Position numbers and translations under genes: made by a program | Assembly: GCA_964226865.1 (NCBI GenBank) | Contig: CAXQUZ010000359.1 | Coordinates: 1-62,999 of the forward strand | Direction: 5' to 3' | Source of the DNA: Myxococcota bacterium | GTDB lineage: Bacteria; Myxococcota_A; UBA796; UBA2385 | Length of the DNA: 62,999 nucleotides | The notes under the pieces: generated by a model | Told to the model about the DNA's origin: nothing | Databases searched by the model: none | Seen by the model: the letters and a program-made list of their open reading frames with translations, nothing else | Part shown: in pieces, positions 44,911 to 61,542 of the stretch | How positions within the stretch are numbered: position 1 is the first letter of the stretch | Layout: each line of letters opens with the position of its first letter

Positions 44911-45509
44911 CGGGCGCTCCCGGGCGGGGTGAGGAGGGGGGCGCCCACCAGGGCGAGGGCCTCGGCGAAGACGGCGCTGGGGGGGCCCGGGTGGTCGCCG
45001 AGCAGGGCCGTGCGGCCGGCGGCGACGATGAGGGCACCGGCGAGGCGGGCCTGGAGGGCGCCCGGCGCCAGCCCCAGCCGCGTGGCCACCAGCGCGGTGA
45101 AGGCCTGCTCGGCGTCGTCGAGCAGCTGCAGCCACACGGCCCGGTGGCGCTCGGTGCCCCGGAGCACGGCGAGGATCGCCGGGAGGTCGAAGTGGACGGC
45201 CAGGTCGAGCAGGCCGGCGTGGGCCGGCAGCAGCGCCGCGTGCAGGGGGCGGTCGGCGCTGGCCGCGGTGAGACCGGCGACCACCTGGGCCAGGCCGGCG
45301 CCCAGGTAGGGGCGCAGGGCGTCTTCCTTGCGGGGGAAGTAGCGGTAGAAGGTGCGCTCGGAGAGGCCGGTGTGGGCGGCGAGGGCCCGGACGGGGTGGT
45401 CGGTGTGGCCGTCGCGCAGGTAGAGCGCCAGCACGGCACGGGACGCGTCGAGAACGGCTTGCTCTCGGTCGTTGTCGGCGGAGAAGAAGGGCAGGCTGAC
45501 CGGGGACAT
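44907..45509 (-). CDS. TetR-family transcriptional regulator
   Basis: The HTH is HPVRALAAHTGLSERTFYRYFPRKEDAL. The stop overlaps the P450 start (ATGA at 44907-44910). Confidence 0.85.
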   Translation of the reverse strand: MSPVSLPFFSADNDREQAVLDASRAVLALYLRDGHTDHPVRALAAHTGLSERTFYRYFPRKEDALRPYLGAGLAQVVAGLTAASADRPLHAALLPAHAGLLDLAVHFDLPAILAVLRGTERHRAVWLQLLDDAEQAFTALVATRLGLAPGALQARLAGALIVAAGRTALLGDHPGPPSAVFAEALALVGAPLLTPPGSAR

Positions 45510-45634
45510 GGGGGGAGGGTAGCGGATGGTGGCAGTTTCTGCCAGGGGTCATGGTTGGGCCGGGGGCGGCCCTCCATCTTCGGTCAACCCCGGGGGACGG
45601 GGGGCCGATGGGCGGCCACAGCCGGAGACGACCC

Positions 45635-46081
45635 ATGCGCTGGACCCTCGAGACGACCATCGACATCGCCGCCCCGCCCGACCGGGTCTGGGACATCCTC
45701 GTCGACCTCCCGCGCTACGGCGCGTGGAACCCCCTGGCGGCGCGCATGGAGGGCCCCCTCGAGGTGGGGGCCGTGCTCGACATGACCGTGCGGCTCGGGC
45801 GCCACACCCGCCGCCAGCCCGCCGATGTCTTCGCCGTCGGCCCGGGCCACCTGCTCATCTGGAGCGGCCACTCCCTCAAGGGGCTGGCCGTGCGCGGGGT
45901 GCGCAGCCAGTGGCTCACCCCCACCCCCGGGGGCTGCCGCTACACGAGCCGCGAGGTCTTCACGGGGCCCCTGGCCGGGCTGACCCGGCGGCTGCTGCGG
46001 TCGACCCTCGACGCGGGCCTCCAGGAGATGGCCGTGGCCCTGCGGGATCGGGCCGAGGCCGGGGCGCGGGCGGCCGCCTGA
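45635..46081 (+). CDS. SRPBCC (START/polyketide-cyclase-like) ligand-binding protein
   Basis: Trimmed to the ATG at 45635. IDIAAPPDRVWDILVDLPRYGAWNP is a typical SRPBCC N-terminus. Confidence 0.8.
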   Translation: MRWTLETTIDIAAPPDRVWDILVDLPRYGAWNPLAARMEGPLEVGAVLDMTVRLGRHTRRQPADVFAVGPGHLLIWSGHSLKGLAVRGVRSQWLTPTPGGCRYTSREVFTGPLAGLTRRLLRSTLDAGLQEMAVALRDRAEAGARAAA

Positions 46082-46206: not shown

Positions 46207-48324
46207 GTGGTTGCTCTGGGATCCGGGTCTGCTGCCCGCCGCGTGCGCCGGCTCCGCGCCCCCGAGAGCCGGGGGCTGGTGATCTTCTGCCACGGGCTCG
46301 GGCTCCACGCCGACAAGTTCACCCCGCTCTACGGGCTCGTGAACCGCCTCGGCCACGACGTGGTCACCTTCGACGCCCCGGGCCACGGGGACGCGGAGGG
46401 CTTCGTGCTCGACAGCGCGACGGTGGACCAGGCGGCGGCGGCGGCCATCTCGGTCTACGCCCGCCACGCCCACGAGCGCCCCGTGCTGCTGGGGACGGGC
46501 TGCTTCGGGGGCTTCTTGATGCGGCGCATCATCGCGGCCGCCCGGGGCAGCGACTGGGTGCCGCCGGCCATCTTCTACTCGGTCGACTACATCCGGCTGC
46601 CGGCGCCCCTGCTGAGGGGGCTCCAGCATGACCGGGTGCTGCGCCTCCTCGACCGCTTCCGGCCCGGCTATGACCACCGCCGCCTGACCCACGCCTCGGT
46701 CGACGACGCGGACTTCATCGCGGGCGACCCGGCCGCCTGGACCCGCTTCCCCCTGGGCATGGGCCTCAAGCTCGCCCACGAGACCAACGCCTTCTACGAC
46801 GGGTTGGGGGACGACGAGCCGCCCCACGCCTTCATCGTGGGCAGCGACGACCGCCTCTCCCACCTGCCGCCCGTGCGCCGGGCGGGCCGGCGCCAGCCCG
46901 ACTTCCGGGTGTGGGAGGTCGCTGGCGGCCACATGCACCTGCACCGCGACCGTCCCGAGGTCCAGGCCCGCTTCGAGACCGCCCTGGCCGAGGCCCTCGC
47001 CTTCGTGACCACACGGGCGGGCGCCCGGGGGCTGCCGGACGGGCTGCCCGCGGCCTCCCTGCCGGCGCCACCCGAGGTCGCCCCGGCCGGTCCCCGGGGC
47101 CAGGCCCGGCTGCTCCGCCAGCTCATGGTCGATCCCGTCGGCCTCGTCGAGGAGCTCCAGGCCCGCCACGGCTCCCTCTTCACCGTGCGCATCCCCTTCG
47201 ACATCACCCCGCCCTTCACCTTTCTCACGACCCGCGAGGGCTACGCCAGCGTGCTGGGCCTCGACCCCGCGGTCGGCCGCAACGGCCCGGTCATCGACCG
47301 GGTGCCCGCCCTGGCCCACTGGACCCCCCGGAGCGACCCGAGCCCCGAGCACCTCCAGGAGCTGCTGCTCACGGGCCGGCGCCACATCGGGCGGCTGCTC
47401 CGGGGCCTGCCCTCGGCCACCATCGACGCGCGGCTGCGGGCGCGGGTCGCCCACCACGTGGCCCAGTGGCCCGCCACCCTCGACCTCGCCGACCGTCTGG
47501 TCACCCTCATCCACGACAGCTGCGCCCGCCTCGTGCTCGGCGATGCGCTCGTGGATGCCCTCGGGCCCGGCATGCTGGACGAGGTGCGCACGGTGGTCAA
47601 CGCCGTCGACGCGGCCCGGGCCGTGACCGCGCTGACCCCCGCCGGGCGGCTGCTGCCCGAGGCCCGGGCCGCCGCGGCCCTCGCCCGTCGGCTGCGGCGG
47701 GCCGCGCGGGACCCCCAGCTCCAGGCCACGCCCACCCTCGCCGGCCTGCGGGCGGAGCACCCCTCGCTGCCCGAGGACGACCTCGTCTGGATGCTCTTCT
47801 TCGCCCTCTGGAACGCCACCATCTACATGGGCACCTACGGCACCTGGTCCTTTCTCGACCTGCTCGCCCAGCCCGGCGCCGTGGCCGCCCTCGACGCCGC
47901 CCCCGACCGCCGGGCCCATCTCGTCGGGGGCATCCTCGAGACCATGCGCCTCAACCCCATCTCGTGGCAGCTGCGCGCCCTGGCCCGCCCCGTCGAGGTG
48001 ACCAGCGGCGGCCGCGCCCACCGGGTGCCCGCGGGCCACTTCCTCACGGTCTTCTCCCACGGCCTGAACCGCGACCCCGCCGTCTATCCCGCGCCCCTGC
48101 GCTGGGATCCCGGCCGCTACGCCGCGGGGGCGCCCCTGCCCCTGCTCTTCGGCACGGGCCCCTTCGCCTGCGTGGCCCAGTTCTTCGTGAAGCAGGTGCT
48201 GGCGACCATCCACGACACCCTGCTGGGCACGGTCTCGCTGCGCCTGGAGGGGCCCCTGCCGCCCCGGATGAGCCGGGTCCACCTGCTCTACCCGAGCGTG
48301 CCGGTGGTCGCGACGCGGGGCTGA
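46207..48324 (+). CDS. Fusion: alpha/beta-hydrolase (lysophospholipase/monoacylglycerol-lipase-like) + atypical cytochrome-P450-like domain
   Basis: GTG at 46207 with GGGAGG 6 nt upstream. The N-terminal ~270 aa carry GLVIFCHGLGLHADKF...FDAPGHGDAEG. The C-terminal ~430 aa carry ExxR (ILETMRLNP) and a Cys loop FGTGPFACVAQFF. The I-helix AGxxT consensus is absent (FFALWNATIY). Confidence 0.8.
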   Translation: MVALGSGSAARRVRRLRAPESRGLVIFCHGLGLHADKFTPLYGLVNRLGHDVVTFDAPGHGDAEGFVLDSATVDQAAAAAISVYARHAHERPVLLGTGCFGGFLMRRIIAAARGSDWVPPAIFYSVDYIRLPAPLLRGLQHDRVLRLLDRFRPGYDHRRLTHASVDDADFIAGDPAAWTRFPLGMGLKLAHETNAFYDGLGDDEPPHAFIVGSDDRLSHLPPVRRAGRRQPDFRVWEVAGGHMHLHRDRPEVQARFETALAEALAFVTTRAGARGLPDGLPAASLPAPPEVAPAGPRGQARLLRQLMVDPVGLVEELQARHGSLFTVRIPFDITPPFTFLTTREGYASVLGLDPAVGRNGPVIDRVPALAHWTPRSDPSPEHLQELLLTGRRHIGRLLRGLPSATIDARLRARVAHHVAQWPATLDLADRLVTLIHDSCARLVLGDALVDALGPGMLDEVRTVVNAVDAARAVTALTPAGRLLPEARAAAALARRLRRAARDPQLQATPTLAGLRAEHPSLPEDDLVWMLFFALWNATIYMGTYGTWSFLDLLAQPGAVAALDAAPDRRAHLVGGILETMRLNPISWQLRALARPVEVTSGGRAHRVPAGHFLTVFSHGLNRDPAVYPAPLRWDPGRYAAGAPLPLLFGTGPFACVAQFFVKQVLATIHDTLLGTVSLRLEGPLPPRMSRVHLLYPSVPVVATRG

Positions 48325-48342: not shown

Positions 48343-49413
48343 TCAGGTGTGGCGGGCCCCTGCGGCGCCGTAGTGGAGGGGCCGCACACCGGGAATGACC
48401 GCCTCCGGATCGATGCCCACGTGCGCGAGCAGGCCGGCGCCCACGCTCTCCACCCCCACCAGCTCGGTGCCTTCGACCACCTCGCCCGAGCGCGGGTCCC
48501 AGGCCAGCGCGGCGCCCCGGGCGTCGGTCGCGCCCAGCACCCGTCCGCCGTCCACGCCCGCGCCGGCGACGAGCACCGAGTGGGTGCGGCCGTGGTCTCG
48601 GCCGTGCTTGTGGTTGCGGCGGACGGCGCGGGCCACGTCGCCGACGACGGCCACCGTGACGGTGTGGAGCAGGGGCATGCCGTCGGGGCCGGGGGTGGTG
48701 GAGAGGTGGTCGAGCAGGCGGTCGAGGGCCCAGAACAGGCCGTCGGCGTCGGCGTCGGCGGTGGCCAGGCTGTCGTGGGCGTCCCAGCCACCGGGCACCT
48801 CCACCCGCGCTGCGGCCACGGCGCCCGCGGCCAGCTCTTCGGCCGCCAGCAGCGCGCGCAGCAGCAGGCCGTCCCGATCGGTGCGGCCCGGGTCGAGCCG
48901 GTCGGGGGAGGCCTCGCCGGAGCCCTCGGGCCACGGGGAGCTGCTGTAGACGCGGAAGGGGGCGCCGGCCTGCGCGGCCACGTGGGCGAGCAGCTCCGGG
49001 GCACCGGGGGCCGCCGTGCCGGCGAGCATGGCCTGGCGGGCGCCGGGGTGGTCGAGTCGATCCGACCACAGGCCGCGGAGGAGCAGGGTGTGCGCCGACC
49101 AGCGGCGGAAGTAGCGGTCCAGCGCGGGGCGGCCCGGCCCGCCCGACCAGGACAGGGCGCCGCAGGCGCGGTGGCAGGTGCCGGGGTCGGCGGGGACGCC
49201 GGGCAGCGGGGTGTGGCCGTCGGGCCCGAAGTGGGGGTCGAGCAGGGTGGGCACGAAGCCGCCCCGGATCGACAGCACGAGCAGGCGCCGGTCAGCAGGG
49301 GGCGCGGCCCGGGCGACCGGTGGCCGTGCGGCGCCCACGACGGAGGCGGCCGCGGCGGACTGGAGCAGCCGGCGGCGAGAGACGGCCAGCGGACGGCCGG
49401 TGGCGCGGCTCAC
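48343..49413 (-). CDS. DUF1501-family (sulfatase/phosphatase-superfamily-like) protein with Tat signal
   Basis: The GTG at 49413 overlaps the upstream stop (GTGA). The Tat-like signal is SRRRLLQSAAAASVVGA. The motifs GGWDAH and GRDHG match my recollection of DUF1501. Confidence 0.8.
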   Translation of the reverse strand: MSRATGRPLAVSRRRLLQSAAAASVVGAARPPVARAAPPADRRLLVLSIRGGFVPTLLDPHFGPDGHTPLPGVPADPGTCHRACGALSWSGGPGRPALDRYFRRWSAHTLLLRGLWSDRLDHPGARQAMLAGTAAPGAPELLAHVAAQAGAPFRVYSSSPWPEGSGEASPDRLDPGRTDRDGLLLRALLAAEELAAGAVAAARVEVPGGWDAHDSLATADADADGLFWALDRLLDHLSTTPGPDGMPLLHTVTVAVVGDVARAVRRNHKHGRDHGRTHSVLVAGAGVDGGRVLGATDARGAALAWDPRSGEVVEGTELVGVESVGAGLLAHVGIDPEAVIPGVRPLHYGAAGARHT

Positions 49414-52124
49414 TGGGCCACCATCACGGTCCACCGGTGCTCGGCGAGGGCGAAGGGGTTCTTCGCGCCCGTGGAGAGGTACTGGCCGAGGTAGTCGCCG
49501 TTGACGGTGTCGCGGAAGGCGAAGGTCGGGCCGCCGAGGCTCTCCCAGGCCACGGGCGCGGCCTCCTCGGGGCGATCCACCACCACCCAGGCCCCCTGGT
49601 TGGCGCCGAGCCACTTCCCGGTGCCGCTCTCGCGGAAGTAGGTGGCGTTGGCGGCGGCGCCGGTGCCGCGCACGGGGGTGCGGTCGGGCACCCACCATGT
49701 GGGGCCGGGGTCGAAGCGGGGGTGGTCCATGTCGTCGGCGAAGTCGAACTCGGCGCGACTGGAGAGGTAGGCCTGGGTCTCCTGGTTGACCAGGGCCAGC
49801 ACCGGCGGGAGGGCGGGCGGGTCGCTCGTGGGGGTGACCGGCACGAGGACGGGCACGGGCTTGGCGATCCAGGCGTGGTCGTCGCCGAGCACGGGGGGAA
49901 AGAAGACCTCGCGGCCCACCTTGGCCGGACCGGGGGTGTCGGGCACGCGCAGCCACAGGTTCTGCATGTCTTGGAAGGCGAGACGCCCGTCGGGCAGGGT
50001 GATCATCCGCAAGAACGCGAGCTTCGGGGCCGCGGCTGCCACCCCCGGGGTGGCCGAGTCGGCGGCCCCCGGCAGCAGCCACTGCTCCCGATCGAGCGCC
50101 CGGATGAGCGTCATGGACGAGCCGGTGAAGTCGTCCTTCCGCCACACGGCCGCCTGGCGGAGGTCGCTCGTCGTCGACAGGCCGGTCGCCGGCGCGGCTG
50201 CCCAGGACAGGTACTGGCCGGTCTTGGGGGCATACAGCGCGAAGGTGTCGGGCAGGCGGACCTCGGCGGCCACCTGGCGCTCGTACACCCGGTGGCGCAT
50301 CACGAGGTTTCGCAGGGCGAGGTCGGTGTCGGGGAGCCGGCCGGCGTGGACCTCGACGGCGGCGAGGGTCCACTCCCCCGCCCGGGCCTGGAGGTCGAGG
50401 GCCCCGCCCCGGACGTCGGTCCGCGCCAGTGCGGCGACGTCACCGGCGGGGAGGGGGACGACGCTGTCGGCCGCGCCCGCGCCGGCCCGCACCCCCAGCA
50501 GCGCCTGCTCCCGGTCCACCCAGATGGCGACGAGCTGCATGGTGTGGTCGACCTTGGTCACGGGCTGGAGCGGCGTGGGGCCCATCCTCTCGGTGTAGAC
50601 CGAGAAGCAGTGCTCGCGGCCCTCGGCGCCCGCCCGGCTCTCCAGGTTGAGCGTGAGGAAGAAGGCCCCCCGTGCCCCCAGCATGAGCTGGAAGACCTTG
50701 CTCCTCGAGCCGCCGCCGACCGGGGCCTCGGGCTCGACCCGCACCCACACGAGCACCGTGATGCCCTCGGCGGGGGGCGGCACGTCGGGCAGGAAGCGGC
50801 GGTAGGCCCCGTCCACGAGGCCGCTGGCGTCGCGCCTGGCCGCCACGGGGCCGTCGGGCTGGAGGGCCTTGTCCTTGCGGCGGGCGTCGTGGAACCAGCC
50901 CAGCGGCAGCATCGCCTCGGACTTGGGGGCCTGCAGGTCGACCGCGGCCCGCACCCCGCCCGCCGAGCCCCACACCTGCAGCTCGGGCCAGTCGTAGAGG
51001 CTGAACTCCTGGGTGGTGAGCACCTGCTTGGACTCGGTGACCCCCGAGCCAGCGGCCGTTGTGAGCAGGCGGGACCAGTCGTGGGACGCGAAGATGAGCT
51101 GGCCCGAGTGGGCCTGGACCACGTGGAAGCGCTCATGCGGCAGCACGTCGGTGGGGCTGCCCGGTGTGAGCTGCCCTTGCTGGCCCACGCCGAGGTGGTG
51201 GAAGACGATGGCGTCGCCGTGGAAGTCGTTGCCGCGGTCGGTGATCTGGGAGATCGTGACCTGGCCCGTCTCGAGGGGGTCGATGCGCACATGCTGCCAC
51301 GCCCCCACCCACACCCCCGCGGCGTAGGTGTTGTCGTCGCGGAGGGCGTGGATGGCCGCAAAGCGGGGCAGCGAGCCCGCCACCGTGCGGGCCCGCAGCC
51401 GGCGGCGGTGGTCGAAGTCATCGTGCAGGCGCCCGAGCTCCTCGGCGGTGAGCGCGCGGTCGTAGATGCGCACCTCGGCCACGGTGAGCCCGCTGAGGTC
51501 GCCCGAGCCGGCGCTCTCGCCGAGGGGGCCGATCCACAGCTTCGTCTGGCCCGGCTCGAAGGCCCGGGTGGGGCGCGCGCCCGCCATGTCGTCCGTGGAG
51601 CGGGAGGGCCAGACCGGTCGGCGGCTGTGGGCGCCGTCGTAGTTCACGACGTAGAGCTGGTGGCCGCCCCACTGCTGTTCGGTCGCGTCGAGGTGGTGCT
51701 CGAGGCCGGTGGCGGCGTCCGGGTCGGCAGGCCGCAGGGTGGCGAGGCCGGCCCGGGTGCTCCGGAACTCGATGCCCTCGCCCCACGGCGCCTGGGGGGT
51801 GCCGCTGCGCCCGGCCTGGCGGCGGGCCTCGTCGTCGGCGTCGGTGTGCAGGGCCTCCAGCCAGAGGGGCGCGCCGAGGGCGCTGCGCTTGCCGCCGTCG
51901 TGGCGCACCCACACACACAGCGCGAAGGCGCTGAGGCGCGGCCCGGTGTAGCCCTCGGCCGACAGGGCGCCCCCCTCGCCGAAGGCCACGCCCCACGGGG
52001 TGAAGCGCAGCCGACCCTCGGCGCGGAGCCCCGCCCAGCGGCTCGCCTGGTCGCGGCCGGGGGCGGCGCTGGCGAGGTCGAAGTGGGCGACCAGTCCGCC
52101 CACCGGGTCCTTGGGGAGAATCAT
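49410..52124 (-). CDS. Large hypothetical protein: two LamG/concanavalin-like domains plus C-terminal repeat region; no signal peptide
   Basis: ATG at 52124, 7 nt after the upstream stop. LTVAEVRIYDRALTAEEL is a typical end of a LamG (Laminin_G_3) domain. A second LamG-like block spans ITVLVWVRV...LVAIWVD...LAAVEVHAGRL. The C-terminal ~300 aa carry recurring GxY/WL motifs that may indicate a beta-trefoil. Confidence 0.75.
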   Translation of the reverse strand: MILPKDPVGGLVAHFDLASAAPGRDQASRWAGLRAEGRLRFTPWGVAFGEGGALSAEGYTGPRLSAFALCVWVRHDGGKRSALGAPLWLEALHTDADDEARRQAGRSGTPQAPWGEGIEFRSTRAGLATLRPADPDAATGLEHHLDATEQQWGGHQLYVVNYDGAHSRRPVWPSRSTDDMAGARPTRAFEPGQTKLWIGPLGESAGSGDLSGLTVAEVRIYDRALTAEELGRLHDDFDHRRRLRARTVAGSLPRFAAIHALRDDNTYAAGVWVGAWQHVRIDPLETGQVTISQITDRGNDFHGDAIVFHHLGVGQQGQLTPGSPTDVLPHERFHVVQAHSGQLIFASHDWSRLLTTAAGSGVTESKQVLTTQEFSLYDWPELQVWGSAGGVRAAVDLQAPKSEAMLPLGWFHDARRKDKALQPDGPVAARRDASGLVDGAYRRFLPDVPPPAEGITVLVWVRVEPEAPVGGGSRSKVFQLMLGARGAFFLTLNLESRAGAEGREHCFSVYTERMGPTPLQPVTKVDHTMQLVAIWVDREQALLGVRAGAGAADSVVPLPAGDVAALARTDVRGGALDLQARAGEWTLAAVEVHAGRLPDTDLALRNLVMRHRVYERQVAAEVRLPDTFALYAPKTGQYLSWAAAPATGLSTTSDLRQAAVWRKDDFTGSSMTLIRALDREQWLLPGAADSATPGVAAAAPKLAFLRMITLPDGRLAFQDMQNLWLRVPDTPGPAKVGREVFFPPVLGDDHAWIAKPVPVLVPVTPTSDPPALPPVLALVNQETQAYLSSRAEFDFADDMDHPRFDPGPTWWVPDRTPVRGTGAAANATYFRESGTGKWLGANQGAWVVVDRPEEAAPVAWESLGGPTFAFRDTVNGDYLGQYLSTGAKNPFALAEHRWTVMVAQ

Positions 52125-52131
52125 GGGTGCC

Positions 52132-54357
52132 TCAGGCGGGGGCGTCGGAGATGGAGATCTCGATCGAGGTGAACACGCGGGTCACCTCGATGCCCACGGC
52201 CACCTTGTCGAAGGCGTCGAACACCCGGGTGAGCTTCGTGGCCAGCGGCGTCACCGCGGCGCCCACGCCGTCGGTCTCTGGTGCAGCGGCGGCGGCCTCA
52301 CCGGTCTCGACGACGGGGTCGTCGACGATCTGGACGATGTGGCTCCCCGAGGCCAGCACGCTCGACAGCAGCGTGGCGCTGGCGTCGGCATAGCCGGCAG
52401 CGAAGGCCTTGTCGGAGGTGGGCTCTGGCCCGCTGGCGTGCTTGAGGGTCTCCAGCGCGATGCAGACCACCTTCTCCATCGCGCTCAAGACGAGGTCGAT
52501 GAGGGAGAGGACAGCGGCGGCGAGCTTGCTGAGCTCCTTGACCTCTCGGGAGCTGGCCAGCGAGACCGCGAGGGCCCGCGGCAGGATGGACAGCTCGAAG
52601 CCCATCTGGGTGATCTCGAGCCCCGTGCGCGCGTCGGAGTAGCGGTTGGACAGGATGTCGGCCATGCGCAGGAAGCCCCGCACCGTGTAGGCGACCCCCA
52701 CGAGCACGCCCCCCACCGTGGTGATCGCCAGCAGCTCGAAGCCGGTGAGCACGAGGCCCACGAGCTCGACGAAGGACAGCACGATGCCGAGGGCGAACTG
52801 GGACACCGCCGAGAGCTGGGAGAGGGTCGGGGCGCCGCTGGCGGGCTGGCCGTCCCGGGCGAACAGCCGCTGGATCGAGCCGTCGTCGACCGTGTCCGTC
52901 ATGACCTCTTCGAAGAAGTGGACCACCGCGGCCGGCTCGGGGAGGTCCGGCAGGCTGTGGATCCAGCTCTCCAGCTCGCTGTTCCGGGGGTCGAGGTTGC
53001 GGCCCGCCATCACCCGGTACGAGACGTGGATGAAGTAGGCGACCGAGACGGTGAGGGCCTCCTGGAGGCTCAGGTGGCGGGCCTTGCCCGTCATCGTGAG
53101 GGTGACGAGGCTGTAGAGCTCAGAGACCCCGGGCACGTAGACCTCGGCCTGGAAGGCGCCGCGGAGCGTGTCGACGAGGGTGTGGGCCAGCGACCGGGCG
53201 GAGGCAACGACCCAGGTCTCGAGCCAGTCGCCGAGCTCGGCCATGGCGTCGGTCATCGTGTCGTAGAGGTCGCCCAGGTCGAGGGCCAGCGGGTTGCTGC
53301 CGAGCACGCCGAAGACCATGCCCAGGATGGGGTCGAGGATGGCGAGGAGCTCTTTGAGTGCACGGGTGTCGAGCCCGAAGCCCCGCAGCTCGGCCAGCAG
53401 CTCGGCCTCGAGGTCGGCGAAGAGGCGCTCGGCCTGGTCCAGCACCTGGTGGAGCAGCTGCATGGCCTGGTTGTCGCCGTGCAGGGGGCCGAGGGCGGTC
53501 TCGGCGTTGGCGAGCGCCTCGTCGAGCACGGGCTGGAAGCCCACCACCATGGCCCGCACGCCCCGCAGCTTGGGGTTGTCGCGGCCCTCCTTGAGCACGG
53601 CTGGCGCGAGCCCGAGCATCAGGTCGATGCCGCGCTTGAGCTGTCGCCAGCCGTAGTCGACCAGGCTGTCGAGGATGGCCTTGATCTCGAGCGCCTTCTT
53701 GAGGTTGGCGAGGTCCTTGAAGAAGTTGAGGAAGGCCTCGGCGAGCTCCTTGAGCTCCTCGACGAAGGCCTCGCAGGCGGCGCGGATCTCCTCGAGGGCC
53801 GACGCGAGGGTGTGGCCCAGGCTGTCGAGCTCGTCGGCCAGGGAGTCGACGGCCGACTCGCCCACCTCCTCGATCCACTCGGCGGCGGTCTTCACGGCCT
53901 GGGCGGCCTGGACGGCGGCGTCTTCGATGCCCTCGCCGATGGAGGTGGCGGCGTCGACCACCGCGCCGCCCACCACGGCCGCGCCGTCGGCCACCGCAGC
54001 CAGCCCGACCCGCGCGCACTCCTCGGCCTCGTGGTAGGCATCGTCGACCGCGTTGCCGAGGTCTTGGAAGGCGTGGCCCACCGGGTCGATGACCTGGTTC
54101 TCGATGCCGTCCACCACCTGGTTGCCGAAGTCTTCGAAGGCGTGGAGGCTGGTGTTGGCGGCCATGGTGACGCCGTCGGCGACGGCCTCGGCGGCGTCCT
54201 CGATGCCCTCCCCGACGGCGACGGCGGCGTCCTTGATGCCCTCGCCGGTCGCGATCGCGGCATCCTCGAGGGTGTGCCCGACGTCGTTGAAGCCCTGCTT
54301 GACGTCGTTGTCGTGCACGGCACCGAAGGTGAATGTGCCGCAGAAGTCGAAGCTCAT
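52132..54357 (-). CDS. 741-aa acidic, predominantly helical hypothetical protein with one internal hydrophobic hairpin; no signal peptide
   Basis: ATG at 54357, trimmed from ORF 52132..54471. N-terminal degenerate repeats are present (GEGIKDAAVAV / GEGIEDAAEAV / GEGIEDAAVQA; AFEDFGNQV / AFQDLGNAV). There is a single ~45-aa hydrophobic stretch, FALGIVLSFVELVGLVLTGFELLAITTVGGVLVGVAY. Arg/Pro content is low compared with off-frame ORFs. Confidence 0.75.
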   Translation of the reverse strand: MSFDFCGTFTFGAVHDNDVKQGFNDVGHTLEDAAIATGEGIKDAAVAVGEGIEDAAEAVADGVTMAANTSLHAFEDFGNQVVDGIENQVIDPVGHAFQDLGNAVDDAYHEAEECARVGLAAVADGAAVVGGAVVDAATSIGEGIEDAAVQAAQAVKTAAEWIEEVGESAVDSLADELDSLGHTLASALEEIRAACEAFVEELKELAEAFLNFFKDLANLKKALEIKAILDSLVDYGWRQLKRGIDLMLGLAPAVLKEGRDNPKLRGVRAMVVGFQPVLDEALANAETALGPLHGDNQAMQLLHQVLDQAERLFADLEAELLAELRGFGLDTRALKELLAILDPILGMVFGVLGSNPLALDLGDLYDTMTDAMAELGDWLETWVVASARSLAHTLVDTLRGAFQAEVYVPGVSELYSLVTLTMTGKARHLSLQEALTVSVAYFIHVSYRVMAGRNLDPRNSELESWIHSLPDLPEPAAVVHFFEEVMTDTVDDGSIQRLFARDGQPASGAPTLSQLSAVSQFALGIVLSFVELVGLVLTGFELLAITTVGGVLVGVAYTVRGFLRMADILSNRYSDARTGLEITQMGFELSILPRALAVSLASSREVKELSKLAAAVLSLIDLVLSAMEKVVCIALETLKHASGPEPTSDKAFAAGYADASATLLSSVLASGSHIVQIVDDPVVETGEAAAAAPETDGVGAAVTPLATKLTRVFDAFDKVAVGIEVTRVFTSIEISISDAPA

Positions 54358-54392
54358 GGTCGCCCTTCCCGGGGGGCTGGCAGGGCGCCCAC

Positions 54393-54408
54393 CGCGAGCG
54401 CGGTGCCA
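54393..54408 (-). promoter_or_regulatory. Candidate sigma-54 (-24/-12) promoter for the 54357->48343 operon
   Basis: The minus strand reads TGGCAC-CGCGC-TCGCG. The -24 element is perfect and the GG-N10-GC spacing is correct, but the -12 element is TCGC versus consensus TTGC. It lies about 35 nt upstream of the ATG at 54357. Confidence 0.35.
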
Positions 54409-54524: not shown

Positions 54525-55835
54525 ATGCGGTCCGTCGTCCCTCTTGTCCTGTCTGCGGTCGTGGCCGCGCTGCCGGCGGTGGCGCACGCGCGGCTGTCCT
54601 GTGAGACGCCCTGCGGCGTGGGCGGCATGGTGATCCAGCCGGGCAGCCACTACACGCTGCAGGTCGACTGCTCGACGGGGGGCTACTCGGCCGAGACCGG
54701 CAGCCTGCACCCGGCCACCCTGTCCCTGTCCACCCCCCAGTCCGTCATCTTCGGCGAGCTGGCCGACAGCACCAACTCCCAGCTGTCGTTCTTCGTGCAC
54801 GGCACGGGCGAACACTTCAGCACGAGCACCGGGGGCAGCCTCCCCCCCGACGCCACCGAGGCGGTGCCGGACGGGACCTGCCTCTTCGACCCGCCCGACA
54901 CGGCCGACGAGCCCGACAGCGTCGGCGTGGAGACCGAGTGGGCGGTGGTCGACGCCGCCGGCTCCACCTGGATCTGGCGCCACGAGGTGGTGACCTTCGG
55001 CAACACGGACGACAACGCGGGCATCCGGCTCACCCAGACCCTCACCACCGACGGAGCGGGCGGCAGCGGCAGCGTGGGGCTGCGCTGGCAGGTGGACCAC
55101 CGGGCGGCCGACGACGACGGCCCGGTGCTGGCGACCGTGACCTGTGACCCCTTCGGCCTGTCCGACAGCACCGCGGCGCAGACCAGCCTGGCGGCCACCG
55201 AGCTCGAAGACTTCGTCCAGCTCGTCAACAACACGGCCAGCCCCTTCGTCTCGACGCTGGTGTCGACCACGACGCTCGACGCCCTGCCGTCGACGGGCCG
55301 GCCCGACCTCGTCGCCTACGGCACCTGGTCGTGGCTCACCCTCGCCCCCTGGGGCGACCCTCCGGCAGGTCCCGCCAGCGGGCCCGACGCCGACTCGGCC
55401 GTCCTCTACACCTTCGGCGCCGACATCAGCAGCGCCACCACGCTGGCCGCCGGCGAGTCGGTCACCCGCAGCCTGCTGCTCTTTGCCGCCGAGAACGTCG
55501 ACAGCTGCGGGGACTTCATCGAAGACAGCTCCACGGAGCCCGGCGACTCCGGCGACCCGGGAGAGCCGACCGACACCGGGCCTGTCGACACCGGCGAGCC
55601 CACCGACACCGACGAGCCCACCGACGATCCCACCGACGATCCCACCGACACCGACGACCCCACCGACCCGGACGCCGCCGTCGACTCGGGGGCCGCCGCT
55701 GCGACCGCCGCCGGGGGCTACGGCGGGGGCTTCGCGAGCTGCGGGAGCACCTCCGGGGCCGTGCTGCTGGTCTTCGGTGTGCCGGTCCTCGCCGGTCTGC
55801 GCCGGCGCCGCCGGTCGGGAGGTGGGCCGTGCTGA
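54525..55835 (+). CDS. Secreted protein with acidic PTD-repeat linker and MYXO-CTERM-type C-terminal sorting signal
   Basis: ATG at 54525. The signal peptide is MRSVVPLVLSAVVAALPAVAHA. The C-terminus is GGFASCGSTSGAVLLVFGVPVLAGLRRRRR, i.e. Cys plus hydrophobic helix plus Arg cluster. Confidence 0.8.
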   Translation: MRSVVPLVLSAVVAALPAVAHARLSCETPCGVGGMVIQPGSHYTLQVDCSTGGYSAETGSLHPATLSLSTPQSVIFGELADSTNSQLSFFVHGTGEHFSTSTGGSLPPDATEAVPDGTCLFDPPDTADEPDSVGVETEWAVVDAAGSTWIWRHEVVTFGNTDDNAGIRLTQTLTTDGAGGSGSVGLRWQVDHRAADDDGPVLATVTCDPFGLSDSTAAQTSLAATELEDFVQLVNNTASPFVSTLVSTTTLDALPSTGRPDLVAYGTWSWLTLAPWGDPPAGPASGPDADSAVLYTFGADISSATTLAAGESVTRSLLLFAAENVDSCGDFIEDSSTEPGDSGDPGEPTDTGPVDTGEPTDTDEPTDDPTDDPTDTDDPTDPDAAVDSGAAAATAAGGYGGGFASCGSTSGAVLLVFGVPVLAGLRRRRRSGGGPC

Positions 55836-57649
55836 AGGCGCTCCTGCTGCTGCTTGCGCCCCCCGCCGCTGCCCAGGATGCCTTCGACGCCCACCAGCTC
55901 CACGCCACGGGCCTCAGCTCCGACCCCCGCTCGCCGCTGCGCCTGCTCGCACCGCCGTCGCCCGCTGCTCCCCACTGGAGCGCCAGCCTCGTGGGAGAGC
56001 TCGGCCGGGCCCCCCTCGTGGCCGTGGGCCCGGACGGCACGGTCACGTCCATCGTCGACCAGCTCGGGGTGGCGAACCTCGCCGGGAGCTGGCGCCCCAC
56101 GGACCGGCTCCGGCTCACGGCGGCCGTGCCGGTCTTTGCGGTGCTGCAGGCCCCCGGCGACACCACGGGGGCCGCGGTCGGAGACCTGCGCCTCGTGGGC
56201 TCGGCCACACTGATCGATGGGCCGGTGCGGCTCGGCCTGTCGCCGCTGCTCGACCTCCCCACGGGGGCCGAGGAGCGCTACGTCGGGCGCCCGGGCCTCG
56301 GGGGGGGGCTGCTGGCGACCGCCCAGGTGGAGCGGGCGCGGCTCACCGTCACCGGAGAGCTGGGGCCCGACCTGTCGGCGGCGCCCAACGACCTGGACCA
56401 CACCCGCGTGAACACTGGTCTTCACGTCGCCTACGGCCTGTCGGACGACCTGGCTCTCAACGCCGAGCTGCGGGCCCTGTGGTCGCTGCGGGGGGACGGC
56501 TGCGCCTGCACCCCCGCAGAGCTGTCGTCTTGGGCCCACCTCGGCAGCGAGCGCGGCCTCCACGCCCTCATCGGCGGCGCCGTCGCCCTGAACAGCCACC
56601 CCGGCACGAGCCTGTTCCGGGTCTTTCTGGGAGGTGGCTTCGGAGCGGTGCCCCCGGCCCCCCCCGAAGAGCTGCTGCTCGACGACCCCTACGCCGCGAC
56701 CGAGCTGCCGCCCGAGGACGAGGACGACGACCGCCTCGCCGCCTGGCTCGCGGCGGCGGCGGGAGGGGCGGCGGGGGCCCTGCCTGGGGGAGGCGGCATC
56801 CCCGGGGCGGCGCTGCCCGGCGGGGGGGCGCCCCTGGTGGTGCTGCCGGGGTGGCCCACGGGCGATGACCGGGAGGCCGCCAGCGACGACGACCCGCCCT
56901 GCGCCCGCGCCACCGTGGGCAAGCGCGCCCACCACCTGCCGTCGGTCTTCTTCGCGCCCAACCGTGCCGACCTCTCCGCCGACGGCGTCGCGGCGCTCCA
57001 GGCCGCAGCGGAGGCCCTCGCGCGCGACGACGGGGCCACGCTGCAGGTCGACATCCACAGCCACGACCGGGCGGGCGCATCCTTCACCGACCACATCGTC
57101 GAGCGGCGCCGTGTGCAGGTCTTCACCATGCTGCAGCACCTCGGCGTCGCCCCCGAGCGCGTCACGCTGGGAGCGCTGGGCGCGCCCGGCGACGAGCTGG
57201 CCGACCACCGCAAGGCACGGGCCGAGCTCACCATCCTGGGCGGCAAGGAGCCGCGCGTCTCGCTCCAGGAGGGGCTCCGCGAGGCGGCGGCCGCGGCGGT
57301 CTTGTCCGCTGCTGCCGATGCCTGTGTGGTGCCGCTGCTCACCCCCCACGCGGTGCGCTTCCGCGGCTCGGGGACGCGGTGGACCGTGGCCAGCGAGCCC
57401 GCGCTCGTGGAGGCGGCCACGGCGGGCCGCGGGGGCAAGGTGGTGGTGCTGGTGGCGCACCTGGGGCCCGGTGCCGTCTCCGAGGACGACCGCCACCTGG
57501 CGCGGCAGCGGGCGGCGGCGATCCGCACCGAGCTCGTGGAGCGCGGGGTGGACGAGCACCTGCTGCGCATCGAGGTCCAGGACACGGTCGATCCCAGCCG
57601 CGCGGGTGCCCCCCGCATCGAGCTGCACATCAGCGACCGGAGACCCTGA
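55829..57649 (+). CDS. Outer-membrane protein: N-terminal beta-barrel-like region plus two OmpA-C-like domains
   Basis: The GTG at 55829 overlaps the upstream gene end, with GGGAGG upstream. The signal peptide is LKALLLLLAPPAAAQD. The two OmpA-like blocks are FFAPNRADLSADGVAALQ...ERRRVQVFTMLQHLGV and RHLARQRAAAIRTELVERGV. Confidence 0.8.
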   Translation: MLKALLLLLAPPAAAQDAFDAHQLHATGLSSDPRSPLRLLAPPSPAAPHWSASLVGELGRAPLVAVGPDGTVTSIVDQLGVANLAGSWRPTDRLRLTAAVPVFAVLQAPGDTTGAAVGDLRLVGSATLIDGPVRLGLSPLLDLPTGAEERYVGRPGLGGGLLATAQVERARLTVTGELGPDLSAAPNDLDHTRVNTGLHVAYGLSDDLALNAELRALWSLRGDGCACTPAELSSWAHLGSERGLHALIGGAVALNSHPGTSLFRVFLGGGFGAVPPAPPEELLLDDPYAATELPPEDEDDDRLAAWLAAAAGGAAGALPGGGGIPGAALPGGGAPLVVLPGWPTGDDREAASDDDPPCARATVGKRAHHLPSVFFAPNRADLSADGVAALQAAAEALARDDGATLQVDIHSHDRAGASFTDHIVERRRVQVFTMLQHLGVAPERVTLGALGAPGDELADHRKARAELTILGGKEPRVSLQEGLREAAAAAVLSAAADACVVPLLTPHAVRFRGSGTRWTVASEPALVEAATAGRGGKVVVLVAHLGPGAVSEDDRHLARQRAAAIRTELVERGVDEHLLRIEVQDTVDPSRAGAPRIELHISDRRP

Positions 57650-57701
57650 GGCGCCCGGGGCGGGGGCCCGCAGGCGGAGCGGTGTCGCCCGCCCGGGGCC
57701 A

Positions 57702-57842
57702 CTCGTGCACGACCAGCTCGGTCATCCTCCCGAGCTCGGCATGCGCGAGGATGTGGCAGTGGGCCATCCACCGGCCGGGGTTGTCGAGCTCGGTGAGCGA
57801 CCCGTCCACCTGCAGGCGTGCATTCGGAGGGGCCTTGCGCCG
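57702..57842 (-). pseudogene. C-terminal remnant of a multicopper oxidase
   Basis: The minus strand reads ...LQVDGSLTELDNPGRWMAHCHILAHAELGRMTELVVHE, the HCHxxxHxxxGM copper-site motif that ends multicopper oxidases. The upstream part of ORF 57630..58598 is Arg/Gly-rich junk with no other copper motifs. Confidence 0.6.
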
Positions 57843-57983
57843 GAGGGGGCGGCGAGCGCGGGCGCCCCACCCGTGGCACCACCCCGCGCGTCGGCCCGGG
57901 GAAGGCGGCGGCCGTCGCCCCGGATCGTGGGTGTTGCCAACCCCCGACGGGGAACCGCGCACACCGCCCAGGAGGTTGGTCTG

Positions 57984-58937
57984 GTGACCCTGTTGGCTTC
58001 GCTGCTGCTCGGACGCGGCGACGCCGCGGCACAGAGCCCCAAGAGGGCGGAGGTCCCCTCGGTCGCGAGGTCGTGGCGCGGGAGGGCTTCCCGCCCACCC
58101 CGAGCCCGTCCGACCTCTACCGGCCCGGGGCCGTGCGCGTGCCCAGCAACCTCTGCCCCGGCGAAGGCCGGGGTCGAGAAGCGCCTGACCTTCATCGATC
58201 CCGAGCAGCGCAGCCTGGCCCTCGGCGACCTCACCCCCACCGATGACTGCCGCAGCACGCTCGAGACCGCTGGGCGCACTCGCGACCTCTCCGATGCCTT
58301 CGTGGTCCACGATGTGATCGTGGCCATCGTCCAGAACACTGTGTGCATCCGCGCGGACGCGTCGGGCGGGGGGGGCGCTCGGCCAGGCCGAGGCATCGTC
58401 CAGCTCGGAGTGCGTGCAGGAGAGCGATGCCCAGGGTCCCCTCGGCTTCAAGGGCGTGCCCCTCGAGAAGGTGGTCGCCGCGGCCCCCGCGCCCACCACC
58501 GTCGCCCTGCCCCTCGCCGCCACCACCCTGTCGGCCAGCTCCTGCCCCTGGGACGGCATCACCTCGGCCGCCGCCCAGAACCACACCCTTGTGCGCAACG
58601 GCCAGTCCTTCGACGTGGAGCGGGCCGACGCCGTGCTGTCGATGTCGAGCCAGCTCCGGGCCTGTGGCGAGGGCGAGGCGGCGCTGCACGTCGAGGACTG
58701 GCGGCGGCGGATGCACCAGAAGAAGGTGGCCGGCCTCGTGATCTTCTACGGCTGGCCCTTCCTGCCGAGTGTGTCGAAGAAGGCCGAGGCGGCGCGGGTC
58801 GAGATGCTGCGGGCCCTCGACTGGGCGCCGGGGGTCGCGTCGCCACCTCCCTGTGGCACGCCGTGGCGGCCGGCTCTCTTCCGCGGCGCGCCCGGGAACG
58901 GGCCTCCCGCGGCACCTGGTGGACGGGCCCGCGATAG
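57984..58937 (+). pseudogene. Hypothetical gene whose coding signal jumps between three frames (probable pseudogene or indel-containing sequence)
   Basis: AGGAGG sits 8 nt before the GTG at 57984. The high-GC3 frame switches near 58050-58062 and near 58165. It switches again exactly at a G8 run (58368-58375), after which ALGQAEASSSSECVQESDAQGPLGFKG...FYGWPFLPSVSKKAEAARVEMLRALDW continues in the +1 frame. The 3' end is uncertain. Confidence 0.45.
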
Positions 58938-58973
58938 GGTCCCCCCTCGTCTGGCCCCGCATCCGGAGCGCGC

Positions 58974-60598: not shown

Positions 60599-60723
60599 CC
60601 GAAGGCACCAGGGGCAGCCCACGGGGCCGCAGTCGCGGGCCGATCGCTCGGTAGCGGGAGTGGTTGAGGCGGGAACCGGAACACGATGGCAAGGCGACTC
60701 GTCCGCCCGAGTCGCGCAGCTTG

Positions 60724-61077: not shown

Positions 61078-61278
61078 CTACCGGGCGCTGGGGGTCTCCT
61101 GGGACGCTTCCGACCCGGTGGTCTGCGATCTGGGGGCAGGGTCGGGTGTGTCGCCAGGAACCACCCGTGCTCCTGCGCACCGGAGCGTGGCTGCCCCCGT
61201 TCGTCGTGCCGCACCACGGCCCGTGTGGGAGAGGAGGTCGCAGGGGTCACGAGCTGCCGACCGGGTGGTGGCGCGGGC

Positions 61279-61540: not shown

Positions 61541-61542
61541 TG

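Follow-up and report, generated by a model that had tools for sequence, protein, structure and literature searches.

Three adjacent minus-strand genes, A, B and C, form one translationally coupled operon in the window, the 62,999-nucleotide stretch of Myxococcota DNA analyzed here, and comparison with other loci supports the operon and the divergent MYXO-CTERM gene D as a conserved unit. The products of A and B are near-orphan families; C encodes a divergent DUF1501 protein with a twin-arginine signal peptide. The reading that we prefer, held tentatively at a probability of about 0.35, is that the operon derives from a widespread "large partner plus Tat-targeted DUF1501" module in which B replaces the usual partner and probably crosses the inner membrane on the Tat signal of C. 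What is unusual here is a partner lacking any PSCyt, PSD or DUF1800 module as well as a signal peptide.

Organization and conservation of the locus

The genes and the upstream element are as follows:

52132..54357, minus strand: gene A, 741 aa (GC3 frame, composition, homologues, model)
49410..52124, minus strand: gene B, 904 aa (N-terminus kept in four loci)
48343..49413, minus strand: gene C, 356 aa, divergent DUF1501 protein of the alkaline-phosphatase clan
54525..55835, plus strand: gene D, 436 aa, divergent from A and in the same position in L001 and L004
55829..57649, plus strand: gene E, 606 aa, OmpA-domain protein; its start shares 7 nt with the end of D
54394..54408, minus strand: sigma-54-like TGGCACcgcgcTCGC, 37 nt upstream of the A start (pattern scan)

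The GC3 frame plot identifies the frames of A, B and C as coding. The junction sequences agree with an earlier note on this DNA, which described a 7-nt gap between A and B (TGA-ggcaccc-ATG) and a GTGA overlap of the B stop with the C start; the GTG of C is the sole canonical start codon between the B stop and the twin-arginine motif. The coupled operon proposed in that note is borne out by tight A-B linkage and B-C adjacency in other loci. The gene set with D was found again in a few metagenomic or MAG contigs, one of them labelled Myxococcota, and the divergent D/A-B-C arrangement or parts of it recur in L001, L002, L004 and L006 at 30-70% identity, so that the trio is syntenic beyond the window. 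B and C are adjacent in the window, L001, L002 and L006; A and B in the window, L001, L002 (where only the C-terminal module of A is present), L003 and L004; and the divergent D/A pair is seen in the window, L001 and L004. Spacing varies: the A-B gap is 8 nt in L001 and L002 and is replaced by an ATGA overlap in L004, and the GTGA overlap of B and C is not kept in L001 or L002, where gaps of 19 nt and 26 nt, respectively, separate the two genes. B and C are still coupled in L002, which has a reduced A, and in L006, in which no A can be seen. Co-occurrence statistics are thin, because there are only about five loci, all on short contigs. An exhaustive search of 1.84 billion representatives returned four relatives of A, and a word-indexed search returned three relatives of B; no clear housekeeping homologue of A was seen.

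The same note had placed the operon behind a sigma-54-like element and opposite a MYXO-CTERM/OmpA pair. The former sequence is there (TGGCAC-N5-TCGC), but the slightly looser pattern TGGCAC-N5-TNGC, for which 0.83 occurrences are expected in the window, was found twice, a count reached in 24 of 100 shuffles. L001 and L004 lack the element upstream of A, and it is probably a chance match. Both domains of the divergent pair were confirmed. The product of D is acidic and secreted, and it combines a signal peptide and a Thr/Asp/Pro-rich linker with a MYXO-CTERM tail (TIGR03382, 19.3 bits against a cut-off of 15.85 when the isolated tail was scored). The contigs of the other loci end before reaching the position of E. 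The pairing of a MYXO-CTERM surface protein with a downstream OmpA-domain protein in the same operon recalls TraA/TraB of Myxococcus, which mediate outer-membrane exchange (PMC3325183; for MYXO-CTERM sorting see PMC11980579), but only the OmpA domain of E matches the TraB model (16 bits, where the cut-off is 700), and D does not match TraA.

The DUF1501 protein and its putative large partner

The features of C and B are listed below, all on the minus strand:

49306..49413: C, twin-arginine signal peptide, residues 1-36 (read from the sequence and homologues)
49252..49263: C, GGFV for canonical GGWD, residues 51-54 (alignment with canonical DUF1501 proteins)
48775..48792: C, GGWDAH motif retained, residues 208-213 (same alignment)
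48589..48603: C, GRDHG motif retained, residues 271-275 (same alignment)
51420..52103: B, first LamG-like (concanavalin-A-like jelly-roll) domain, residues 8-235 (Laminin_G_3 and motifs)
50925..51389: B, middle beta-rich domain, residues 246-400 (hhalign, model strands)
50280..50924: B, second LamG-like domain, residues 401-615 (hhalign, model, Foldseek)
49413..50279: B, tandem domain pair, residues 616-904 (hhalign, RicinB_lectin_2, Foldseek)

C exceeds the DUF1501 cut-off of 27 bits (PF07394, 54.9 bits, E = 1e-14), the profile covering residues 184-340 only, and the Tat signal, GGWDAH and GRDHG claimed previously are all present. The signal consists of SRRRLLQ, a weakly hydrophobic core and an A-R-A cleavage motif; every C homologue (L001, L002, L006 and P0023) keeps both the RR motif and the AxA site. 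One of the three conserved DUF1501 motifs is altered: the first GGWD reads GGFV, with the Asp replaced by Val in four of four family members. Since C has lost this Asp together with some 90 residues, it may not be an enzyme at all.

B is soluble, with neither a hydrophobic segment nor a signal peptide. Strong conservation marks the N-terminus, which is M-x-x-P-K/R-DPVGGLVAHFDLAS in four loci and, by eye, looks like the opening strand of a LamG_3-type domain, leaving no room for a missed signal. The earlier description of B as a signal-less protein with a repetitive C-terminus holds; its two LamG domains draw on weak but convergent support. Laminin_G_3 matches residues 192-230 at E = 0.011, under the Pfam cut-off, and is hit in three of the four homologues; a LamG-type start and the motifs "WV" and "VRIYxRxL" can be recognized by eye in both domains. 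In the model, pLDDT reaches 50-78 in the second domain alone (40.8 for the whole), and the Foldseek matches of this domain are the receptor-binding HC domains of botulinum neurotoxins (BoNT) and NTNH and a legume lectin. The two C-terminal segments of ~140 aa each (residues 616-765 and 766-904) align with one another at an hhalign probability of 85% and E = 6e-6; RicinB_lectin_2 matches the pair at E = 0.062 and is found in two of the four homologues, and Foldseek likewise points to a beta-trefoil-like fold. Residues 246-400, for which the model predicts beta strands, align weakly with residues 616-765 (hhalign, E = 0.03) and are possibly trefoil-like. The confidence of both structure models is low (pLDDT about 40), which leaves these domain assignments no more than suggestive, and B is best described, on weak evidence, as a putative array of LamG-like and beta-trefoil-like modules.

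The helical protein A

Three features of A were delimited, all on the minus strand:

53638..54300: eleven-residue (hendecad) repeats, residues 20-240 (lag-11 identity, hydrophobic period)
52132..52926: C-terminal module, residues 478-741 (L002, P0006)
52678..52815: hydrophobic helical hairpin, residues 515-560 (hydropathy, alignment, model)

A is acidic (pI 4.34) and rich in Ala (15%), has no export signal, and is modelled as all-helical at low confidence (pLDDT about 40), in keeping with its previous description as acidic and helix-rich. Its start is fixed by conservation of the MSF N-terminus in L001 and L004. The homologue P0002 shares 58% identity and the copy in L004 about 30%. The GEGI(K/E)DAA repeats noticed earlier exist and reach further than was stated: residues 20-240 contain about 20 amphipathic, acidic repeats of the type GEGIEDAAxAV, whose lag-11 identity is 23.5% (shuffles, 9.7%; z = 7.1) and whose hydrophobic period is 3.66. 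Amphipathic repeats of eleven residues characterize lipid-surface proteins such as apolipoproteins, perilipins and alpha-synuclein. A shares its period with apolipoproteins A/E, perilipins, alpha-synuclein and group-3 LEA proteins and has a weak Apolipoprotein Pfam match, but its repeats are strongly acidic, not Lys-rich, and the likeness is one of composition only. The repeat region by itself accounts for the weak matches to Apolipoprotein, ZorA tails, tape-measure proteins and P0009-P0019.

The C-terminal module is separable: it is the only portion of A retained in L002, as a stand-alone 300-aa gene beside B and C, where the N-terminal two-thirds are dispensable. It contains the hairpin (Kyte-Doolittle maximum 2.18), with helices at about 517-538 and 543-570. 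The hairpin claimed in the earlier note is thus confirmed, but to call it the only one was slightly too strong, as a weaker hydrophobic helix lies at residues 609-635 (1.92). An acidic residue (E531/D) is conserved in the first hairpin helix and R560 after the second; behind the hairpin comes R-x-GLEIT, the block in which conservation within the family is highest. Every homologue has basic residues after the hairpin, and three of four (P0002, P0006 and P0007) have them before it as well, whereas the window protein lacks the preceding ones. This pattern would partly fit a resident inner-membrane hairpin at least as well as a toxin.

Relation to known systems and candidate roles

DUF1501 proteins are reported to be Tat-targeted and paired with PSCyt/PSD partners, some of which carry Laminin_G_3 (PMC3542564), and in Proteobacteria they pair in operons with DUF1800, linked to polysaccharide-related genes (PMC5122149). 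The earlier assertion that DUF1501 partners are not LamG proteins is therefore too strong, and LamG domains beside DUF1501 are not new: on a Vibrio maritimus plasmid, a 2327-aa CBM96/LamG-like jellyroll/cytochrome c/PSD protein with a signal-peptide-like N-terminus lies directly upstream of a DUF1501 gene, with tatABC ~2.7 kb upstream. In L008, a 578-aa PSD2/PSD4/PSCyt3 lipoprotein gene shares one base with the DUF1501 gene that follows. The A-B-C operon resembles such modules (DUF1549/DUF1553 or DUF1585/1588/1592 with DUF1501, in Planctomycetota/Verrucomicrobiota and others) in the order of large partner then DUF1501, in tight coupling, in the twin-arginine signal of the DUF1501 protein and in the Laminin_G_3 or other carbohydrate-binding modules of some partners. 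It differs in that profile searches find no PSCyt, PSD, DUF1800 or cytochrome c module in B and no DUF1800 in A, B has no signal peptide, C is shorter than canonical DUF1501 proteins by about 60-90 residues and carries GGFV for GGWD, the 741-aa helical A precedes the pair, and the lineage is Myxococcota. With the DUF1800-DUF1501 operons it shares a Tat-motif DUF1501 protein encoded beside its partner.

These likenesses, together with the B-C, A-B and D/A co-occurrence and the Tat motif in all C homologues, argue for the derived-module reading. C, with its alkaline-phosphatase-superfamily fold, would be the exported subunit; B, composed of ligand- or glycan-recognition-type modules only (two LamG-like jelly rolls and two to three trefoil-like domains), would fill the slot of the PSCyt/PSD or DUF1800 partner, fold and bind C in the cytoplasm, and be carried by C across the inner membrane; for a protein without an export signal of its own, hitchhiking in this way is the simplest path to the compartment of C. 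A may attach to the membrane through its hairpin module, bearing the repeats as a long acidic helical extension, and D and E may constitute the cell-surface and peptidoglycan-linked end of what would be a lineage-restricted envelope module of uncultured Myxococcota (A-B-C with D and probably E). The data show how the genes are built, coupled and found together, their domain layout, the Tat motif and the lack of signals on A and B; we infer the B-C complex and its joint export, what A does at the membrane and any enzymatic activity, and the substrate, at a guess, might be a surface or prey glycan or a phospho/sulfo-ester. Hitchhiking has a precedent in PaoABC, a three-subunit complex whose signal-less subunits, encoded in the same operon, ride one Tat signal (PMC4273604), as B would on C. 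Known hitchhikers are mostly cofactor-bearing redox enzymes in demonstrated complexes, whereas here the complex is putative, the gene that carries the signal comes last, and no cofactor motif was seen, which counts against the reading. Hydrogenase small/large subunits and DmsAB are further Tat hitchhiker complexes. The derived-module reading also leaves the role of A unexplained; if its hairpin spans the membrane, a periplasmic loop of only ~4 residues would be a poor docking site. Lectin-like domains can act in the cytoplasm too, which likewise counts against it.

A possible but doubtful alternative is that the three proteins are co-transcribed and spatially separate, with C alone in the periplasm and A and B cytoplasmic or at the inner membrane face, for example as a scaffold or sensor, with neither a B-C complex nor co-export. 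This would account for the missing export signals, for hairpin-flanking basic residues compatible with both ends of A being cytoplasmic, and for repeats resembling those of lipid-surface proteins. However, B occupies the slot of a DUF1501 partner, and in both cases inspected the partner has its own export signal (of lipoprotein type in L008, a signal-peptide-like N-terminus in Vibrio); LamG and ricin-type modules are mostly extracytoplasmic; and B and C stay adjacent and coupled even where A is reduced or not visible.

The earlier note likened A to membrane-inserting toxins or translocators, a comparison drawn from its layout; profile, sequence and fold searches returned no match of A to any toxin or translocator. 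The layout, a hydrophobic hairpin between amphipathic helices in an acidic, signal-less, soluble-looking protein, is that of colicin pore domains, the diphtheria toxin T domain, Cry domain I and Bcl-2 proteins; A differs in the conserved acidic residue of its first hairpin helix, in the basic residues after the hairpin and in a context that is not toxin-like. It is unlikely that A and B form a two-component membrane-damaging toxin in which A, as a pore-former or translocator, hides its hairpin until it meets the target membrane and B binds the receptor, with release by lysis, vesicles or another route for predation or competition. Myxobacteria are predators, and the top Foldseek results for the B model are all receptor-binding HC domains of BoNT/NTNH (E = 5e-8 to 4e-5), in which a LamG-like jelly roll is likewise followed by a beta-trefoil. 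These matches come with TM-scores of ~0.3 on a low-confidence model, and lectins commonly combine a jelly roll with a trefoil; in B the unit is repeated and a further trefoil is present. Membership of B in the BoNT/NTNH HC family was rejected, with identity at 6-10% and neither a protease nor a recognizable translocation domain. No immunity gene, secretion system or polymorphic-toxin feature was seen nearby, and a toxin would leave the strict linkage to a Tat-exported DUF1501 protein and a MYXO-CTERM protein unexplained.

More improbable still is cytoplasmic assembly of all three proteins and their joint export on the signal of C, with the hairpin of A inserting in the outer face of a membrane. 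The coupling of A-B-C in every locus showing them and the two signal-less PaoABC subunits (PMC4273604) favor such a complex, and Tat is reported to be able to integrate proteins with hydrophobic C-terminal helices (PMC10924467); the complex would, however, reach ~210 kDa, beyond the usual range of Tat cargo, and L002 does without the N-terminal two-thirds of A. Finally, that the genes are spurious long frames or three unrelated neighbors has a negligible chance of being correct and was refuted: DNA of 75% G+C is rich in long open reading frames (62 of at least 100 aa in 16 kb), but the coding GC1/GC2/GC3 pattern is confined to these frames and the three proteins are conserved elsewhere in the same order, with identities of 30-72%.

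The three-gene locus and its distribution

The genes A, B and C follow one another on the minus strand, each showing the G+C profile of coding sequence: middle, low and very high at codon positions 1, 2 and 3. Long open reading frames are abundant (62 of at least 100 aa in 16 kb) because the window has a G+C content of about 75%, and the true frames were chosen by codon-position GC analysis. The trio and the divergent gene pair upstream of it are as follows:

52132-54357, minus strand: gene A, helical hairpin protein, 741 aa (codon-position GC)
49410-52124, minus strand: gene B, LamG-like protein, 904 aa (codon-position GC)
48343-49413, minus strand: gene C, DUF1501 protein with a Tat signal, 356 aa (codon-position GC)
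54525-55835, divergent, upstream of A: gene D, MYXO-CTERM protein
55829-57649, after D and overlapping its end: gene E, OmpA-domain protein

The tight junctions claimed in the earlier note are borne out: A and B are separated by TGA-ggcaccc-ATG, and B and C share a GTGA overlap. The GTG of C is the sole canonical start codon from the stop codon of B to the twin-arginine motif, and no terminator-like or sigma-70-like site was found within the trio. At three other loci A and B are spaced by 8 nt, 8 nt and an ATGA overlap, so that the coupling is conserved.

A lack of synteny in related genomes would, according to the earlier note, have spoken against the trio; instead, the gene order is common to the few contigs found, and the module is real, conserved and very rare.

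Contigs carrying all or parts of the gene set in which D is divergent from A-B-C, with protein identities to the window
L001: D<->A-B-C; identity 51/58/49/67%
L002: A reduced to its C-terminal module (residues 481-741), encoded by a 300-aa gene; B (62%) and C (71%) follow
L003: 100%-identical fragment
L004: D<->A and the start of B; A only about 30% identical
L006: Myxococcota MAG; B residues 340-904 and C (61%)

A word-indexed search of about 5.8 billion proteins returned a single relative of A (58% identity); for B it returned three, of which one is a 100%-identical fragment. An exhaustive HMMER profile search of 1.84 billion cluster representatives yielded only four true relatives of A, the remaining matches covering the N-terminal repeat only. 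Scanning with the B profile gave zero relatives in 185,579 species genomes, JGI metagenomes and IMG/VR, and the C profile matched no more than a MAG (L006) and a distant JGI contig (L011). The window itself holds no paralogues of A-E. The sole labelled locus places the module in Myxococcota; the locus is rare and lineage-specific, and A and B are two new orphan protein families.

Several of these contigs have peculiarities of their own. An apparent frameshift in the A homologue of L004 was rejected, as it is a 10-N scaffold gap. In L006, B is shortened by unrelated lower-GC sequence that cuts it at the contig start; this sequence (L006:1-214) codes for the final part of an unrelated basic protein (...RKLMKAFDARAHNHPVF...) and may stem from the insertion of a mobile element or from chimeric assembly. 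In L002 (168-3706) the first ~480 residues of A are absent, and two other proteins are encoded upstream. One, of 255 aa, has several hydrophobic helices and no Pfam match, and might conceivably stand in for the N-terminal part of A; the other is a 545-aa lipoprotein made up of seven MopE-type "putative metal-binding" Cys/Asp repeats.

Features of the three proteins

A is acidic (pI 4.34), contains 15% Ala and has no signal peptide. Its residues 20-240 form about 20 eleven-residue repeats (lag-11 identity of 23.5% versus 9.7% in shuffles, z = 7.1) with a hydrophobic period of 3.66, or 11/3. Kinship with Apolipoprotein, ZorA-tail, tape-measure or WalE1 proteins, raised by scans of Pfam, NCBIfam, PADLOC and PHROGs, was rejected as compositional because all of these weak matches fall on the eleven-residue repeats and far under the family cut-offs. 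A sequence search of the PDB with A, B, C, D and the family profiles returned nothing meaningful. The structure model of A is all-helical and of low confidence (pLDDT 40), and a fold search with it gave no significant match (best Foldseek E = 0.43). The extreme N-terminus of A (54298-54357, minus strand; L001:699-760; L004:1190-1250) stands out for its conservation: the 58%-identity homologue has the same MSFDFCGTFT, and MSF persists at 30% identity. No known motif was recognised in this stretch, a possible tag for targeting or interaction.

The C-terminal module of A (approximately residues 478-741) is separable, since it occurs as a stand-alone gene in L002. It comprises a hydrophobic hairpin (515-560) and a milder hydrophobic helix (609-635). 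Helix 1 of the hairpin retains an acidic residue in the A homologues; basic residues follow helix 2 in all of them (R560 is conserved) and precede helix 1 in the homologues P0002, P0006 and P0007, the window protein lacking them there. Right after the hairpin lies R-x-GLEIT, the block with the highest conservation in the family; helix 2 is amphipathic, not plainly hydrophobic, in the 30%-identity homologue. This layout fits two readings: it is compatible with a resident inner-membrane hairpin whose ends are both cytoplasmic, and also with a buried hairpin of the pore-former type.

B contains no hydrophobic segment. Its first 25 residues are among its best conserved (15/18 identical in L004, whose A shares just 30% identity) and resemble the first strand of a LamG_3 domain, so that a missed signal peptide is unlikely. 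Laminin_G_3 (PF13385) matches B below threshold (16.4 bits against a gathering threshold of 27.6, E = 0.011) and gives weak matches, likewise under the cut-off, in three of four B homologues; RicinB_lectin_2 matches two of the four (E = 0.062). A C-terminal pair of ~140-aa domains is mutually homologous (hhalign probability 85%, E = 6e-6), indicating a tandem duplication, and the two LamG-like regions and the middle domain show just marginal self-similarity. The AlphaFold model of B is poor (pLDDT 40.8, with only residues 440-600 at 50-78) and not confident in the putative C-terminal trefoil region; values near 40 for both A and B arise because the alignments hold only 3-5 sequences. In Foldseek, every one of the best 48 PDB matches of this low-confidence model is a receptor-binding HC domain of a clostridial neurotoxin or NTNH, and a legume lectin comes next in the list. 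HC domains combine a jelly roll and a beta-trefoil, the architecture also suggested for B. The fold search was taken as a hint only, and neurotoxin kinship was not inferred from it. Weak as they are, the profile matches and the model point one way, suggesting that B is built of LamG-like jelly rolls and trefoils.

C matches DUF1501 (PF07394) with 54.9 bits (gathering threshold 27, E = 1e-14). The profile alignment covers only residues 184-340, corresponding to PF07394 positions 229-369 of 390; the N-terminal half aligns by BLAST to a canonical DUF1501 member and is homologous. Relative to two canonical DUF1501 proteins, C lacks about 90 middle residues. Its twin-arginine signal, read by eye as SRRRLLQ followed by an ARA site, is kept in the C homologues as a twin-arginine motif and AxA site. 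GGWDAH (residues 208-213) and GRDHG (271-275) align with the canonical GGWDxH and G(K/R)DH, whereas all four C subfamily members have GGFV as the first motif, where the canonical protein P0023 and the Vibrio protein have GGWD. By analogy with the alkaline-phosphatase superfamily, the Asp of the canonical first GGWD is probably a metal ligand; with its loss, C may have an altered chemistry or be non-catalytic.

Comparison with canonical DUF1501 modules and a possible export route

DUF1501 is a large family of Tat-exported proteins that have obligatory partner proteins. Some PVC-group genomes carry many copies (PMC3542564). Its members bear Tat motifs, and their PSCyt/PSD partners sometimes carry Laminin_G_3 (PMC3542564); pairing with DUF1800 has also been described (PMC5122149). 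The nearest canonical relative of C is P0023 (34% identity; locus L008), whose gene is preceded by that of a 578-aa lipoprotein that matches PSD2/PSD4/PSCyt3 and, weakly, DUF1800, the two genes sharing one base. In a Vibrio maritimus plasmid, the DUF1501 gene lies 63 nt after the gene of a 2327-aa protein annotated as "LamG-like jellyroll", in which CBM96, Laminin_G_3 and cytochrome c modules are combined with PSD/PSCyt modules and whose N-terminus resembles a signal peptide. LamG beside DUF1501 is therefore already known, from PMC3542564 and this plasmid, and is not the unexpected combination that the earlier note took it to be. On the same plasmid (L010; NZ_CP090440.1, record 28476-40953), tatA-tatB-tatC lie ~2.7 kb upstream of the 2327-aa protein and its DUF1501 partner; a dedicated Tat system beside a DUF1501 module may merit survey.

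Like a canonical partner, B lies directly upstream of C on the same strand and is coupled to it. It differs in having neither an export signal nor any PSCyt/PSD/DUF1800 element: A and B have no Pfam match to PSCyt/PSD (DUF1549/1553/1585/1588/1592) or DUF1800 at E <= 0.1, and the B homologues have none at E <= 5. That A and B together represent a split canonical PSCyt/PSD partner was rejected, as hhalign of the family alignments against the L008 partner gave a probability of 0.1%. The locus is a variant of the partner + DUF1501 module with two orphan families; what is new is a partner devoid of PSCyt/PSD/DUF1800 and of an export signal, along with the extra protein A. It represents a natural "partner swap", in which a helical cytochrome-type partner is replaced by a seemingly all-lectin-like, signal-less protein. 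The observation made in the earlier note is confirmed, and its interpretation is supported in part.

Both canonical partners inspected have an N-terminal export signal and can therefore reach the compartment of the Tat-exported DUF1501 protein. Since B occupies the partner slot, is coupled to C and has no signal, the simplest model is one whereby B would fold with C into a complex that crosses the membrane on the Tat signal of C. We give this model a probability of about 0.35. The genes have the arrangement of a Tat hitchhiker system, with a twin-arginine signal on C, none on A or B, and all three in one operon; the hitchhiker route has been established for other complexes encoded in operons, among them the three-subunit PaoABC (PMC4273604). 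Weaknesses of the model are that no cofactor is evident, that C is possibly degenerate and that it gives A no clear role. If B is indeed co-exported with C, partner and DUF1501 protein would act as a physical complex, and Tat hitchhiking would extend beyond redox enzymes.

A rather doubtful alternative is that B and C form no complex and work in separate compartments; the missing signal of B is compatible with this, and the coupled partner position of its gene is what favours co-export. A more speculative extension of co-export, which we consider unlikely, is an undescribed Myxococcota envelope machine, in which the signal-less 97-kDa B would be carried by a degenerate DUF1501 protein through Tat, possibly with the hairpin module of A, and then handed to the MYXO-CTERM/OmpA pair. 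Such a machine would constitute a non-redox Tat hitchhiker system and provide a first functional handle on the DUF1501 family. An A+B toxin, which would suit a buried hairpin, is improbable: A matches no known toxin or translocator family or fold, with no relevant pore-forming toxin or translocator match in Pfam, NCBIfam, PADLOC or the PDB. Least probable is ternary co-export, in which A, likewise signal-less, would cross together with B and C. Nothing at the locus points to a specific phenotype.

Regulation and gene neighbourhood

The sigma-54-like element proposed in the earlier note is present upstream of A (TGGCAC-N5-TCGC, 54394-54408, minus strand), with correct -24 GG/-12 GC spacing and one mismatch to TTGC. 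Its status as a promoter is not upheld: the looser TGGCAC-N5-TNGC occurs twice in the window against 0.83 expected, which is not above chance (at least two in 24 of 100 shuffles), and the equivalent regions of L001 and L004 lack the element. No element is conserved among the D-A intergenic regions of the three loci; L001 and L004 share a short GATACCG..CCCT similarity that is missing from the window. Sigma-54 activators (Sigma54_activat), Tat genes and secretion-system genes were not found among the 36 neighbouring window proteins scanned, nor were Rfam RNA families in the window.

In D, a signal peptide and an acidic Thr/Asp/Pro linker are combined with a MYXO-CTERM tail reading ...ASCGSTSGAVLLVFGVPVLAGLRRRRR, that is, a C-terminal Cys motif, a hydrophobic helix and an Arg-rich tail, which fits the tripartite tag described for MYXO-CTERM (PMC11980579). 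The isolated tail scores above the cut-off for TIGR03382 (19.3 bits versus 15.85) and below that for TIGR03901 (15.3 bits versus 20). The architecture of D and E is like that of TraA/TraB (PMC3325183), although neither protein belongs to those families. A larger envelope locus, as suggested previously, is supported for D by its conserved position; inclusion of E is plausible, the other contigs ending before it. A LysR regulator gene comes after E.

Downstream of the trio, convergent genes encode an alpha/beta-hydrolase, an SRPBCC protein, a TetR regulator and a P450, and look unrelated to it. The gene convergent to C (46243-48324, plus strand) encodes a 693-aa protein with an N-terminal alpha/beta-hydrolase (Hydrolase_4) domain, whose C-terminal stretch matches just the last quarter of a cytochrome P450 (E = 7e-6); it adjoins the SRPBCC/TetR/P450 cluster at 43540-46081 and is an odd fusion or a P450 remnant.

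Elsewhere in the window, 57650-58970 and 60600-62999 have no clear coding frame by codon-position GC and no Rfam match, the latter also being lower in G+C (~0.71). The redox genes clustered at 21439-27748 appear unrelated to the trio; their products are a fatty-acid hydroxylase fused to a rhodanese, a molybdopterin oxidoreductase carrying a cytochrome c domain, and a di-haem cytochrome c resembling RoxA. At 35215-40647 (minus strand), a run of four genes includes two caspase-domain (Peptidase_C14) proteins and a MopE-motif protein, and the window encodes further MopE-motif proteins, one that has a Fibrinogen_C-like region (488-2518) and one that has FG-GAP repeats (16837-19290).
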